Shown here piece by piece: positions 79 through 58,384 of a stretch of DNA of 64,000 bases. The stretch lies in the NCBI RefSeq assembly GCF_058153355.1, contig NZ_CM177019.1; one strand, given 5' to 3'. A program made the translations under genes and the position numbers. Within the stretch, counting starts at the first letter, position 1. The number at the start of each line of letters is the position of its first letter. The notes below the pieces were generated by a model that did not search any database, was not told the DNA's origin, and saw only the letters and a list, made by a program, of their open reading frames with translations.

Positions 79-2603
<2,525 letters not shown>

Positions 2604-2782
2604 TTACCAGGATGATTCTCAAAACAGCACAAATTATCAAAGATGATTTTTTCGGGAGCGATCCCGTTGACGCCAGAGCCACCAAGGGGTGACGCGCGTC
2701 ACATTTCTATTCATAAGTAGCGTTAATCATTCATATCACGAATATTTTCTTGTCAGCGAAAAAAATTGCGGATAAGGTGATG

Positions 2783-2870
2783 AACACATCAGATTTCCTG
2801 GTGTAACGAATTTTTTAAGTGCTTCTTGCTTAAGCAAGTTTAATCCCGACCCCCTCAGGGTCGGGATTTT
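2783..2870 (+). ncRNA. dsrA: DsrA small regulatory RNA (anti-H-NS, rpoS translational activator) with its own terminator hairpin
   Basis: Sequence aacacatcagatttcctggtgtaacgaattttttaagtgcttcttgcttaagcaagttt...cccgaccccctcagggtcgggattttttt matches the recalled DsrA sequence, including the GC hairpin plus U-run; located between yedP and yodD as in K-12. Confidence 0.85.
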
Positions 2871-2882
2871 TTTATTGTGCAT

Positions 2883-3110
2883 TCAACGATTCACTTCAGA
2901 GACGCTGAAGTCATGAATATCCAGTTCGAAGGCATCCGCCAATTCACGCCATGTATGATATTCACGTCCATCGACACTAACGTGTTCAGGATCGTGCTGG
3001 CTGCGATGAACTTCGCTTTCGCTAATTTCATTGATCGCCGCCAGCAGGGCATCGACATCGACACTGACCTCACGTTTTGCGGTATCGCTGTACTCTTTTG
3101 CGGTTTTCAT
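2883..3110 (-). CDS. yodD: Small stress-induced protein YodD (75 aa from MKTAKEYSDTAK)
   Basis: ORF 2883..3125 with internal Met giving a 75-aa product; synteny. Confidence 0.7.
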   Translation of the reverse strand: MKTAKEYSDTAKREVSVDVDALLAAINEISESEVHRSQHDPEHVSVDGREYHTWRELADAFELDIHDFSVSEVNR

Positions 3111-3181
3111 CATATTTCCTCGCAACCGTTACTCTGTTGTTGCCGCCAGTCGTTAAGTCCGCTGGCATCTCTTAAGTATAG

Positions 3182-3460
<279 letters not shown>

Positions 3461-28096: not shown

Positions 28097-28123
28097 TTAT
28101 CGGCGTAAGCGGGGCAAAGTTTA
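28097..28123 (-). promoter_or_regulatory. sigma28 (FliA) class 3 promoter for fliDST
   Basis: Minus-strand TAAACTTT-N11-GCCGATAA, a near-perfect match to the sigma28 consensus TAAAGTTT-N11-GCCGATAA. Confidence 0.75.
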
Positions 28124-28196: not shown

Positions 28197-28223
28197 TAAA
28201 GGTTGTGAGTGACCAGACGATAA
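28197..28223 (+). promoter_or_regulatory. sigma28 (FliA) class 3 promoter for fliC
   Basis: TAAAGGTT-N11-GACGATAA about 75 bp upstream of the fliC ATG. Confidence 0.75.
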
Positions 28224-30100: not shown

Positions 30101-30820
30101 GTGAATTCACTCTATACCGCTGAAGGTGTAATGGATAAACACTCGCTGTGGCAGCGTTATGTCCCGCTGGTGCGTCACGAAGCATTGCGCCTGCAGGTTC
30201 GACTGCCCGCGAGCGTGGAACTTGACGATCTGCTACAGGCGGGCGGCATTGGGTTACTTAATGCCGTCGAACGCTATGACGCCCTACAAGGAACGGCATT
30301 TACAACTTACGCAGTGCAGCGTATCCGTGGCGCTATGCTGGATGAACTTCGCAGCCGTGACTGGGTGCCGCGCAGCGTGCGACGCAACGCGCGTGAAGTG
30401 GCACAGGCAATAGGGCAACTGGAGCAGGAACTTGGCCGCAACGCCACGGAAACTGAGGTTGCGGAACGTTTAGGGATCGATATTGCCGATTATCGCCAAA
30501 TGTTGCTCGACACCAATAACAGCCAGCTCTTCTCCTACGATGAGTGGCGCGAAGAGCACGGCGATAGCATCGAACTGGTTACTGATGATCATCAGCGAGA
30601 AAACCCGCTACAACAACTGCTGGACAGTAATCTGCGCCAGCGGGTGATGGAAGCCATCGAAACGTTGCCTGAGCGCGAAAAACTGGTATTAACCCTCTAT
30701 TACCAGGAAGAGCTGAATCTCAAAGAGATTGGCGCGGTGCTGGAGGTCGGGGAATCGCGGGTCAGTCAGTTACACAGCCAGGCCATTAAACGGTTACGCA
30801 CTAAACTGGGTAAGTTATAA
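30101..30820 (+). CDS. fliA: Flagellar sigma factor sigma28 FliA (GTG start)
   Basis: 239-aa ORF with sigma-70 family regions 2 and 4. Confidence 0.95.
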   Translation: MNSLYTAEGVMDKHSLWQRYVPLVRHEALRLQVRLPASVELDDLLQAGGIGLLNAVERYDALQGTAFTTYAVQRIRGAMLDELRSRDWVPRSVRRNAREVAQAIGQLEQELGRNATETEVAERLGIDIADYRQMLLDTNNSQLFSYDEWREEHGDSIELVTDDHQRENPLQQLLDSNLRQRVMEAIETLPEREKLVLTLYYQEELNLKEIGAVLEVGESRVSQLHSQAIKRLRTKLGKL

Positions 30821-39771: not shown

Positions 39772-39847
<76 letters not shown>

Positions 39848-39900
39848 GTTTAAAAGACATCGGCTTCAGCGGATGTCCGGCTGAAAGGCCTGAAGAATTT

Positions 39901-39974
39901 GGCGCGTTAACAAAGCGGTTATGTAGCGGATTGCAAATCCGTCTAGTCCGGTTCGACTCCGGAACGCGCCTCCA
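39901..39974 (+). tRNA. cysT: tRNA-Cys (GCA)
   Basis: ggcgcgttaacaaagcggttatgtagcggattGCAaatccgtc...ggttcgactccggaacgcgcctcca; 74 nt. Confidence 0.93.
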
Positions 39975-39986
39975 CTTTCTTCCCGA

Positions 39987-40073
39987 GCCCGGATGGTGGA
40001 ATCGGTAGACACAAGGGATTTAAAATCCCTCGGCGTTCGCGCTGTGCGGGTTCAAGTCCCGCTCCGGGTACCA
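39987..40073 (+). tRNA. leuZ: tRNA-Leu (UAA) with long variable arm
   Basis: gcccggatggtggaatcggtagacacaagggattTAAaatccc...gggttcaagtcccgctccgggtacca; 87 nt. Confidence 0.93.
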
Positions 40074-51700: not shown

Positions 51701-52129
51701 TTAATCTCCCGTAAGTGGAACTAACAGCACATCGACCTCACTTGAGGCAATCACTCTTTTCGCCGAGCAGGATGCTCGCGAAAAGAAACTGTGATTGTGA
51801 TTACCGCAAATCACCAAATCGAAATGATGTTTGCGACAAACCTCCAGAATATGTTCGCTTAACTCACCGTAGGCAATAAACGTTTCGTCAACGGGATACC
51901 CCGCATCCTGAATTAACTTATCAAGAAAGCTTTGCGTTTCTTCCTGCATCACGCTGCGTAAATCTTCAAGCATCGGCGCGGCTAATTGATTGTACATTTC
52001 CGGGTCGGAAGCGAGAGTAATTAAACTGATGTGTCCCTTTACTGGCCTGGCGATAGATACCGCTTTTGCTAGCAGTTGCTGACTTTCCGGTGTAACCGCA
52101 ACGGCGACAAGAATATTGCTATAGCTCAT
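51701..52129 (-). CDS. uspC: Universal stress protein UspC
   Basis: 142-aa Usp-family ORF. Confidence 0.88.
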   Translation of the reverse strand: MSYSNILVAVAVTPESQQLLAKAVSIARPVKGHISLITLASDPEMYNQLAAPMLEDLRSVMQEETQSFLDKLIQDAGYPVDETFIAYGELSEHILEVCRKHHFDLVICGNHNHSFFSRASCSAKRVIASSEVDVLLVPLTGD

Positions 52130-52631
52130 AACCTGTTCCTTATTCTGTGAACTTCAGGTGACATTAAAGCTTTACTCCTAATGGAGAATCGACGCAATCC
52201 CAACTCAGTCAAACAGGTAAATATTAGTGTGATTATTAGTAAATACAATTAATCAATCACTCTCGGTGATCATATGATTTCAACTGTAATTATAAGAAAA
52301 TAATGTACTGATTCTCCATATCAAACAAGTGGTTAATATATGTAAAACATTTTATTAACATTAAGTTGATTGTTGCCTTTCTTTGTATTTAATTAGTTTG
52401 TTGTGCGGTAAGTGTCTGTTTAAAAATAGCTTATCGGGTATTGCATTAAAGCAATTATTTATAGCAGATGATTATTTACGGTGAGTTATTTTAACTGTGC
52501 GCAACATCCCATTTCGATTATTCCTGTTTCATTTTTACTTGCTATCGTAGCGAAAAACTTTTTAACAGATTGAAATACACCCAAAACAAAAGTATGACTT
52601 ATACATTTATGTTAAGTAATTGAGCGTTTTG

Positions 52632-52647
52632 TGTGATCTGCATCACA
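52632..52647. promoter_or_regulatory. CRP site TGTGATCTGCATCACA in the flhDC regulatory region
   Basis: Perfect TGTGA-N6-TCACA palindrome about 265 bp upstream of the flhD start; flhDC is a known CRP-activated class 1 operon. Confidence 0.75.
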
Positions 52648-52909
52648 CATTATTGAAAATCGCAGCCCCCCTCCGTTGTATGTGAGTGTAGTGACGAGTA
52701 AAGTTGCGTCGATTTAGGAAAAATCTTAGATAAGTGTAAAGAACCCCTTCTATTTGTAAGGACTTATTAAATCCAAAAAAGGGGCTCTGCCTATTGCAGC
52801 TTATCGCAACTATTCTAATGCTAATTATTTTTTACCGGGGCTTCCCGGCGACATCACGGGGTGCGGTGAGACCGCATAAAAATAAAGTTGGTTATTCTGG
52901 GTGGGAATA

Positions 52910-53260
52910 ATGCATACCTCCGAGTTGCTGAAACACATTTATGACATCAACTTGTCATATTTACTACTTGCACAGCGTCTGATTGTTCAGGACAAAGCGT
53001 CCGCAATGTTTCGTCTCGGCATAAATGAAGAAATGGCGACAACGTTAGCGGCACTGACTCTTCCGCAAATGGTTAAGCTGGCAGAAACCAATCAACTGGT
53101 TTGTCACTTCCGTTTTGACAGCCACCAGACGATTACTCAGTTGACGCAAGATTCCCGCGTTGACGATCTCCAGCAAATTCATACCGGCATCATGCTCTCA
53201 ACACGCTTGCTGAATGATGTTAATCAGCCTGAAGAAGCGCTGCGCAAGAAAAGGGCGTGA
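52910..53260 (+). CDS. flhD: Flagellar master regulator subunit FlhD (116 aa from [15 protein letters not shown])
   Basis: ORF 52901..53260 trimmed to the canonical start. Confidence 0.93.
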
Positions 53261-53262
53261 TC

Positions 53263-53841
53263 ATGAGTGAAAAAAGCATTGTTCAGGAAGCGCGGGATAT
53301 TCAGCTGGCAATGGAATTGATCACCCTGGGCGCTCGTTTGCAGATGCTGGAAAGCGAAACACAGTTAAGTCGCGGATGCCTGATAAAACTCTATAAAGAA
53401 CTGCGCGGAAGCCCACCGCCGAAAGGCATGCTGCCATTCTCAACCGACTGGTTTATGACCTGGGAACAAAACGTTCATGCTTCGATGTTCTGTAACGCAT
53501 GGCAGTTTTTACTGAAAACCGGCTTGTGTAATGGCGTCGATGCGGTAATCAAAGCCTACCGTTTATACCTTGAACAGTGCCCGCAAGCAGAAGAAGGACC
53601 GCTACTGGCATTAACCCGTGCCTGGACATTGGTACGGTTTGTTGAAAGTGGATTACTGCAACTTTCCAGCTGCAACTGCTGCGGCGGCAATTTTATTACC
53701 CACGCTCACCAGCCTGTTGGCAGCTTTGCCTGCAGCTTATGTCAGCCGCCATCCCGGGCAGTAAAAAGACGTAAACTTTCCCAGAATCCTGCCGATATTA
53801 TCCCACAACTGCTGGATGAACAGAGAGTACAGGCTGTTTAA
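53263..53841 (+). CDS. flhC: Flagellar master regulator subunit FlhC (192 aa)
   Basis: ORF with Zn-binding cysteines (CNCCGGNF...CSLC). Confidence 0.93.
53772..53798 (+). promoter_or_regulatory. sigma28 promoter inside the 3' end of flhC, candidate class 3 promoter for motAB-cheAW
   Basis: TAAACTTT-N11-GCCGATAT matches the sigma28 consensus at 7/8 and 7/8 positions. Confidence 0.6.
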
Positions 53842-53865
53842 CTGATACGGTGTGGCGAAACATTC

Positions 53866-53899
53866 CAGCAGCGGTAACGACGTACCGCTGCTTTTTTTT
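53866..53899 (+). terminator. Rho-independent terminator after flhC
   Basis: gcagcggta acga cgtaccgctgc hairpin followed by a T run of 8. Confidence 0.75.
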
Positions 53900-53967
53900 C
53901 CCCCAATCGCGCGTTAACGTCTGACGACTGAACATCCTGTCATGGTCAACAGTGGAAGGATGATGTC

Positions 53968-54851
53968 GTGCTTATCTTATTAGGTTACCTGGTTGTTCTC
54001 GGTACAGTTTTCGGCGGTTATCTGATGACCGGTGGAAGCCTTGGAGCACTCTATCAACCCGCTGAACTGGTGATTATTGCCGGTGCAGGGATTGGGTCGT
54101 TTATCGTCGGCAATAATGGCAAAGCGATTAAAGGCACGCTGAAGGCGCTGCCGTTGCTATTTCGTCGCTCCAAATATACCAAAGCAATGTATATGGATCT
54201 GCTGGCTCTGCTTTATCGGTTGATGGCGAAATCGCGGCAGATGGGGATGTTTTCGTTGGAACGCGATATTGAAAATCCCCGTGAGAGCGAGATCTTCGCC
54301 AGCTACCCACGCATCCTTGCGGATAGCGTCATGCTTGATTTTATCGTCGATTATCTGCGCCTGATTATCAGCGGTCACATGAATACCTTCGAAATTGAAG
54401 CCCTGATGGATGAAGAGATTGAGACGCACGAAAGCGAAGCAGAAGTCCCGGCGAACAGTCTGGCATTGGTCGGGGACTCACTTCCGGCGTTTGGTATTGT
54501 CGCGGCTGTGATGGGGGTCGTTCACGCGTTAGGTTCAGCCGATCGTCCTGCCGCCGAGCTGGGGGCGCTTATCGCACATGCGATGGTGGGGACTTTCCTC
54601 GGTATTTTATTGGCTTACGGATTTATTTCCCCATTAGCGAGTGTTTTACGTCAGAAAAGCGCCGAAACCAGCAAAATGATGCAATGCGTCAAAGTCACAC
54701 TGCTTTCTAATCTGAACGGTTACGCACCGCCTATCGCCGTTGAGTTTGGTCGCAAAACGCTCTATTCCAGCGAACGTCCGTCGTTTATTGAACTGGAAGA
54801 GCATGTGCGTGCGGTGAAAAATCCGCAACAACAGACGACAACCGAGGAAGC

Positions 54852-54855
<4 letters not shown>
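53968..54855 (+). CDS. motA: Flagellar stator protein MotA (GTG start)
   Basis: 295-aa ORF. Confidence 0.95.
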
Positions 54856-58271: not shown

Positions 58272-58297
58272 TTCTCCTGATTTCCTCAATTGCAATG

Positions 58298-58329
58298 AAC
58301 CCGATGACCTGCGCATCGGGTTTTTTATT
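58298..58329 (+). terminator. Rho-independent terminator after cheW
   Basis: cccgatg acctgcg catcggg hairpin followed by ttttttattt. Confidence 0.8.
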
Positions 58330-58356
58330 TCAGTTTCGCGGTGGGTGGCATCAGCA

Positions 58357-58384
58357 ATAAAGTTTCCCCCTTCCTTGCCGATAA
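58357..58384 (+). promoter_or_regulatory. sigma28 class 3 promoter for the tar-tap-cheRBYZ operon
   Basis: Exact consensus TAAAGTTT-N11-GCCGATAA about 30 bp upstream of the tar ATG. Confidence 0.9.

Follow-up and report, generated by a model that had tools for sequence, protein, structure and literature searches.

The closest described system is the class-3 promoter of the Escherichia coli mocha operon, motAB-cheAW, which is recognized by FliA (sigma-28) and lies within the 3′ end of flhC. Its description extends over more than two decades, with prediction in 1999–2001, genome-wide mapping in 2014, recognition of an evolutionary constraint on FlhC in 2018, and characterization of the terminated leader as the sRNA MotR in 2023. 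Fitzgerald 2014 (PMC4183435), crediting the earlier prediction to Ide, Ikebe and Kutsukake (1999) and Park et al. (2001), listed the promoter as a 28-mer FliA ChIP-seq site with a FAT score of 101 and a ChIP signal in the highest tier, assigned to (flhC)motAB-cheAW (Table 2 of that paper). Normalized RNA levels in the wild type were 320 for flhC and 302 for motA, falling to 107 and 1, respectively, in a fliA deletion. The authors also noted that an flhC deletion strain carrying plasmid-borne flhC is non-motile; the plasmid fails to rescue motility because the deletion removes the promoter. A later study (Fitzgerald 2017/2018, 10.1101/188474) found that the flhC-internal promoter is the most conserved of all FliA promoters and the sole intragenic FliA promoter common to E. 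coli and Salmonella, and identified its −10 element as the reason for the conservation of FlhC Ala177-Asp178.

The same promoter serves motR. Melamed 2023 (eLife 12:RP87151; PMC10578931) described MotR (b4828) as an Hfq-bound sRNA band of ~95 nt, with a 5′ end that had been mapped by Thomason 2015 (as cited in PMC10578931), and showed that readthrough of the MotR terminator yields the operon mRNA; readthrough bands are also visible on northern blots. K-12 MotR pairs with the rpsJ and fliC mRNAs and promotes flagellar synthesis, raising both S10 (the rpsJ product) and flagellar number (PMC10578931). FliA binding, the FliA dependence of motA, the 5′ end, and the sRNA with its Hfq binding have thus all been established experimentally by others. 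Three further sRNAs, UhpU, FliX and FlgO, share with MotR the same sigma factor, Hfq binding and the flagellar regulon (PMC10578931). However, these three derive from 3′ UTRs, UhpU from its own intragenic promoter and FliX and FlgO by processing, whereas MotR, alone among the four, derives from a 5′ UTR and has a promoter in common with the mRNA of an operon. The motA leader carries its terminator ahead of the first gene of the operon, and in this it resembles both classical leader attenuators (e.g., the trp and S10 leaders) and 5′-UTR sRNAs made by premature termination. Like these, it gives rise to a discrete small terminated RNA and has a predicted, mutually exclusive alternative helix (see below). 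Unlike the trp and S10 attenuators, it has no identified leader peptide, ligand pocket or protein-binding site.

Here, we compare this system with a locus in a 64,000-nt stretch of E. coli chromosomal DNA (“the window”; contig NZ_CM177019.1), the features of which are collected in Table 1. Of 5426 complete E. coli genomes, 5376 contain a match to positions 53200–54200 with 95–99.9% identity, and the genes annotated in the matched region are flhD, flhC and motA. A first-pass annotation of the window, made from the sequence alone, had noted a near-consensus sigma-28 promoter inside the last 70 bp of flhC, upstream of the flhC terminator and of motA. The promoter is present as described: it reads TAAACTTT-CCCAGAATCCT-GCCGATAT, with an 11-nt spacer and two mismatches to the sigma-28 consensus, TAAAGTTT-N11-GCCGATAA; its start lies exactly 70 bp from the end of flhC, the stop codon of which occupies 53839–53841; and it precedes both the terminator stem (53867–53892) and the GTG start codon of motA (53968). 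The element is almost certainly the FliA class-3 promoter of the mocha operon. The window carries the identical 28-mer at the same position in flhC, with the same genes downstream, as in the motA class-3 promoter of Ide 1999, Park 2001, and Fitzgerald 2014 and 2018. The promoter itself shows no difference from that sequence; the window has one synonymous change nearby, at 53745, 27 bp 5′ of the −35 element. We found no evidence contradicting the identification as the motA/motR promoter. The promoter inside flhC and the MotR terminator are therefore real but already known.

Table 1. Features of the flhC-motA locus and the other sigma-28 matches in the window, with candidate elements marked as such
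Feature	Position	Strand	Sequence, basis or remark
flhC coding sequence	53263..53841	+	192 codons + stop; ORF; gapless alignment to MG1655 flhC
Invariant A-rich block	53761..53771	+	GTAAAAAGACG; positions −44 to −34, directly 5′ of −35
Sigma-28 promoter motif	53772-53798	+	TAAACTTTCCCAGAATCCTGCCGATAT
−35 element	53772..53779	+	TAAACTTT; motif scan; listed in Fitzgerald 2014 Table 2
−10 element	53791..53798	+	GCCGATAT; overlaps FlhC codons Ala177-Asp178
+1 of MotR and motAB-cheAW mRNA	53805	+	Mapped from MG1655 motR 5′ end, 1977302
MotR sRNA, 95 nt, 5′ part of motA leader	53805..53899	+	b4828 alignment, gapless, 93/95 identical
Candidate anti-terminator, 5′ strand	53809..53816	+	CUGCUGGA; MotR nt 5-12, flhC codons 183-185
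MotR-M1 seed mutation site, GTG to CAC	53850..53852	+	MotR nt 46-48; primer SM467
Candidate anti-terminator, 3′ strand	53864..53871	+	UCCAGCAG; MotR nt 60-67, overlaps terminator left arm by 5 nt
Intrinsic terminator common to flhDC and MotR	53867..53899	+	Stem-loop 53867-53892, U-tract to 53899
Rest of motA leader, readthrough transcripts only	53900..53967	+	
motA, first gene of motAB-cheAW	53968..54855	+	ORF, GTG start; RefSeq annotation under match
Sigma-28 match, fliD upstream	28097-28123	−	
Sigma-28 match, fliC upstream	28197-28223	+	
Sigma-28 match, tar upstream	58358-58384	+	Perfect consensus

Sigma-28 matches are rare in the window. Scanning both strands of the 64 kb with up to three mismatches gave four matches against 0.53 expected, a number reached by none of 100 shuffles. 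The other three matches are the fliD, fliC and tar promoters, and therefore serve as internal positive controls; fliA itself also lies within the window (30101–30820). The tar promoter has two neighbors of its own, an Rfam C0465 RNA match on the minus strand (58291–58368, 94.5 bits), which overlaps the promoter, and a terminator-like hairpin on the plus strand (58297–58323).

The FlhC protein of the window differs from that of K-12 MG1655 by a single residue, R39C (codon 39, 53377–53379). Upstream of flhD, the region between it and a uspC-like ORF (51701–52129, minus strand) spans about 780 bp (52130–52909) and contains no ORF of at least 40 amino acids other than one at 52126–52248. MG1655 carries IS1H upstream of flhD (RefSeq annotation); given the short gap without a further ORF, the window appears to be without this insertion. 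Elsewhere, an Rfam match to the DsrA sRNA (2783–2869, 102.9 bits) and three clustered tRNA genes (39772–40070) are ordinary landmarks of this part of the chromosome.

The position of the transcript start is supported by several lines of evidence. The ncRNA motR (b4828) annotated in MG1655 RefSeq lies on the minus strand (1977208..1977302) and overlaps flhC at its 3′ end, and transfer of the motR 5′ end to the window places +1 at 53805, 7 nt past the end of the −10 element. The cloning primer SM001, which begins ACAACTGCTGG, agrees with this position, as does the published numbering of the MotR* mutation (“TGC at positions 6–8”). The first-pass annotation had placed a FliA-dependent 5′ end near 53805, which coincides exactly with the annotated 5′ end of MotR. 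flhC thus hosts the promoter together with the first 37 nt of the sigma-28 transcript, and the leader of motA, counted from 53805, is 163 nt long, as expected from the prediction of a long leader for motAB-cheAW. The 95-nt RNA shares its 5′ end, terminator, U-tail and length with K-12 MotR, and has a predicted fold energy of −28.7 kcal/mol (z = −2.4). A search of Rfam 15 found no MotR family and, by gathering score, no match at the locus; the E-value mode returned noise far below threshold.

The terminator shared by flhDC and MotR has a stem of 10 pairs, six of them G-C, with a predicted energy of −16.7 kcal/mol, followed by a run of 7–8 U that ends at 53899. An intrinsic terminator with a U-tail at the 3′ end constitutes the Hfq-binding module of an sRNA. 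RNA polymerase containing sigma-28 would initiate at 53805 and meet the flhC terminator, with its stem beginning at 53867 and its U-tract reaching 53899, 58–95 nt 3′ of the start. Transcripts ending at the terminator would become the 95-nt Hfq-binding sRNA MotR, and those that pass would become the motAB-cheAW mRNA with its 163-nt leader, such that one promoter and one terminator would partition transcripts into a regulatory RNA and the mRNA of an operon. The claim that transcripts need to read through the flhC terminator to reach motA matches Melamed 2023 (PMC10578931), and the built-in attenuation point that had been proposed corresponds to the intrinsic terminator between the promoter and motA, with MotR as the product of stopping and the operon mRNA as the product of readthrough. 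The layout of the locus, the transcript start and the part played by readthrough were thus correctly read from the sequence alone; what was missed is that the arrangement has long been known, and that the RNA ending at the terminator has a function of its own, as an Hfq-binding sRNA. The 3′-end mapping paper of Adams 2021 and its consulted supplements mention neither motA, flhC nor the coordinate.

What the present analysis establishes is the anatomy of the locus and its conservation. A search with FlhC as the query, using one genome per species, gave 80 loci from the Enterobacteriaceae, Erwiniaceae, Pectobacteriaceae and Serratia; motifs were counted over 80 sequences, comprising the window and 79 fetched loci. 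motA lies downstream of flhC in each of the 79 loci with enough sequence beyond flhC. The best sigma-28 motif lies at −69 to −43 relative to the flhC stop codon, with an 11-nt spacer and one to three mismatches, in 79 of the 80 sequences. Four of these 79, with the motif at the same offset, read TAAACTTA at −35. The sequence of the spacer varies freely among loci, and GCCGATA of the −10 element is invariant, with the eighth base free. The sole exception is Enterobacter cloacae DSM 26481 (locus 2501–3202), in which the spacer is 10 nt rather than 11 (TAAACTTTCCGGGATGCTGCCGATAT) and the FlhC match ends at residue 173. The short spacer and the early end of the match together indicate an apparent 1-nt deletion that frameshifts the 3′ end of flhC and shortens the spacer; the deletion may be genuine, or it may reflect an error in the assembly.

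Codon usage in flhC points in the same direction. Among 140 degenerate codons with a conserved amino acid, 14 are at least 97% codon-invariant, and 12 of these 14 fall in codons 167–187, spanning the A-rich block 5′ of the −35 element, the −35 and −10 elements, and transcript positions +2 to +19. With these codons, the constraint published for Ala177-Asp178 extends to the whole promoter element. Within the A-rich block, codons 167–168 and 170 are 99–100% codon-invariant across 79 distinct flhC sequences, and the fixed codons of the block include GTA, which is rare for Val, as well as AAA (Lys) twice. This block is possibly an UP-element-like contact; we found no discussion of it in the cited FliA and MotR papers.

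The terminator is less widespread than the promoter. Its canonical form is kept in 70 loci, with an outer stem of (A)GCAGCG/CGCTGC(U) and a T-run of 6–9. Across these loci there are 40 distinct inner stem segments, and RNAalifold identifies compensatory changes at three inner stem pairs, with both sides changed in 5, 6 and 17 sequences. A strict terminator scan found none in eight of the nine loci from Serratia, Pectobacterium and Brenneria, where there are other hairpins with poor U-tracts. These genera retain the promoter within flhC together with the invariant 5′ part of its transcript, and the canonical terminator is replaced; therefore, the sRNA/attenuator half of the arrangement is less widespread than the promoter half. 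The flhC-motA spacers of Pectobacterium and Brenneria contain a long hairpin (AUCUAUCACUG...CAGUGAUAGAU), the U-tract of which is weak, and those of Serratia, which reach 218 bp in length, contain other hairpins.

Two other readings of the promoter can be weighed against these data. One holds that the intragenic promoter makes only the sRNA and that motA has its own promoter 3′ of the terminator, the circumstance that the first-pass annotation had named as refuting its proposal. The 68-bp gap at 53900–53967 could in principle hold a promoter, and in some proteobacteria the sigma-28 promoter of motA is indeed intergenic (10.1101/188474). However, a motif scan of this gap found no sigma-28 match with up to three mismatches, and no sigma-70-like site was found in 52500–54300; 79 of 80 sequences have their best sigma-28 motif inside flhC; species that keep Asp178 show no enrichment of an intergenic motif (10.1101/188474); and deletion of flhC abolishes motility despite plasmid-supplied FlhC (PMC4183435). 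A separate motA promoter is thus very improbable. The other reading, that the site is a chance match or a non-functional FliA site, draws on the presence in E. coli of ~30 intragenic FliA sites, most of which are unconserved and without stable transcripts (PMC4183435; 10.1101/188474). The flhC site is exceptional among these for its highest-tier ChIP signal, its fixed offset across dozens of genera and its invariance at synonymous positions. A chance or silent site, which we regard as having a negligible probability, is excluded by the combination of conservation and ChIP data.

The MotR allele of the window is not that of K-12. Within nt 41–54 of the sRNA (53845–53858), the window has T rather than A at 53853 (nt 49) and A rather than C at 53858 (nt 54), two substitutions beside the seed, with nt 46–48 identical to K-12. 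The predicted duplex with rpsJ +141..155 is −15.1 kcal/mol for the window and −22.4 kcal/mol for K-12, a difference of ~7 kcal/mol; the M1 loss-of-function mutant, in which the change is at a different site, gives −13.3 kcal/mol. Given the seed-adjacent U49 and A54 and the weaker predicted pairing with rpsJ, the set of K-12 targets may not transfer fully. Among the 5426 complete E. coli genomes, 1135 carry the window allele and 2971 that of K-12. Other genera carry GGTGTGG, as does the window, suggesting that the extended pairing with rpsJ may have arisen as a derived trait of K-12-type MotR. Two possible roles of the invariant 5′ end of MotR in target pairing were considered and rejected. It is not the published seed, since the M1 seed lies at nt 46–48. 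As a second fliC-pairing site, nt 1–24 paired with fliC −62..+400 at −15.3 kcal/mol, a value equaled or bettered by 91% of shuffles; an M1-independent contact between MotR and fliC has been reported (PMC10578931).

How the split between sRNA and mRNA is set we infer from predicted folding, conservation and published RNA levels. We put forward, tentatively, an RNA anti-terminator. MotR nt 5–12 (CUGCUGGA) are the exact complement of nt 60–67 (UCCAGCAG), and pairing between the two would sequester half of the left arm of the terminator. The helix would form once nt 60–67 had been made, and some polymerases would then run on into motA. On the flhDC mRNA, ribosomes translating flhC, the stop codon of which corresponds to nt 35–37, would presumably cover the 5′ strand and block the helix. 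The terminator would therefore act at full strength on translated flhDC mRNA and be leaky on untranslated sigma-28 transcripts. In such a model, which is possible but far from assured, the helix would set the ratio of MotR to motAB-cheAW mRNA and make a single terminator promoter-selective. The logic would be the opposite of that in trp, in that translation would favor termination, and would do so only on transcripts from the flhDC promoter. We found no description of the helix in the MotR paper (PMC10578931) or in a literature search.

Folding predictions and conservation are consistent with this model. The 8-bp helix is predicted with a probability of ~0.99 in simulated nascent transcripts of 68–80 nt, and in the full-length RNA just 3.2 kcal/mol separate the alternative fold from the more stable terminator fold. 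When the upstream part is dinucleotide-shuffled, this gap becomes 9.1 ± 2.2 kcal/mol, and it is no larger than 3.2 kcal/mol in 1.1% (nt 1–59 shuffled) or 0.5% (nt 1–36 shuffled) of the shuffles. For other, compact terminators of the window, the gap is about 5.6–18 kcal/mol. Many irregular hairpins inside genes, with small gaps, were also picked up by the permissive hairpin finder; therefore, only compact canonical terminators are informative for this comparison, and our main reliance is on the shuffle control. Each of the 66 distinct orthologues is predicted to form the helix, with energy differences of 0–7 kcal/mol. The 5′ strand (nt 5–12) is invariant in all 70 loci with a canonical terminator, and the invariance is strict over nt 2–12, including wobble positions. 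On the other strand, C61 and C62 are invariant and U60 is present in at least 90% of loci, although all three lie outside the terminator stem; they are the only invariant or near-invariant bases of a variable intergenic spacer, and their partners would be A12 (for U60), G11 (for C61) and G10 (for C62). The MotR* mutation (nt 6–8, TGC to GAG), reported as a “more abundant” MotR found by chance (PMC10578931), abolishes the predicted helix. Lastly, the fliA deletion data (flhC 107, motA 1) indicate that ~99% of transcripts started at flhDC are stopped, while those started by sigma-28 give a motA level of 302, a pattern consistent with a terminator that differs in strength from one transcript to another.

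Several points weigh against the model. Since both strands of the helix are invariant, there is no covariation signal, and CTGCTG, which encodes Leu-Leu, is a common hexamer. Conservation of the 5′ strand extends to Pectobacterium, Brenneria and most Serratia, all of which are without the CCAGCAG arm, meaning that something else constrains the 5′ strand too; relaxed wobble positions in codons 183–185 were seen in 0 of 70 loci with the arm and 1 of 9 without it, a difference that is not significant. Furthermore, nt 2–4 and 14–15 are invariant but lie outside the 8-bp helix, the effect of MotR* could run through RNA stability instead, and thermodynamic folding is no proof of co-transcriptional behavior. 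The RNA levels in the fliA deletion would also be explained by S10-NusB anti-termination at the motR terminator, in which MotR raises S10, which would feed back to favor the full-length motAB-cheAW mRNA. This autoregulation was proposed by the authors of the MotR study themselves, who observed that MotR and MotR* raise the levels of motAB-cheAW and tar operon mRNA in the wild type and not in a nusB deletion; they labeled the idea as speculation, and their paper reports no BoxA (PMC10578931). The best BoxA candidate in the window MotR, GCTGTTTAACT (nt 29–39), matches GYTCTTTAANA at 9 of 11 positions, with mismatches at C4 and A11. We rejected it because the critical C4, one of two bases altered in a loss-of-function BoxA mutant of suhB, is mismatched. 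As GCUGUUUAACU at 53833–53843, the stretch spans the flhC stop codon, and judging by its sequence it is probably not a Nus-factor site. On balance, we consider regulation through S10-NusB unlikely. The simplest reading is that the terminator leaks at a fixed rate, giving a constant ratio of sRNA to mRNA with no regulated attenuation. Readthrough bands appear on northern blots without any treatment (PMC10578931), and no sensor element has been demonstrated. However, a −16.7 kcal/mol hairpin followed by a run of 8 U is predicted to be strong, and ~99% of flhDC-started transcripts are stopped in the fliA deletion (PMC4183435). By our reckoning from the Table 2 values of that study, a fixed leak of 1% would need an implausibly high level of initiation, ~13 times the fliC RNA level, to produce a motA level of 302. 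We hold a fixed leak to be possible but doubtful.

The candidate anti-terminator helix and the natural polymorphism near the MotR seed are modest new leads from a locus that is otherwise well described. If the proposed helix is real, it would explain why the promoter has been retained inside a coding sequence, why the wobble positions of codons 182–185 do not change and U60–C62 are conserved outside the terminator stem, and why the accidental MotR* variant is more abundant. The strength of the terminator would then be set by the promoter from which an RNA originates and, hence, by the translation state of that RNA.
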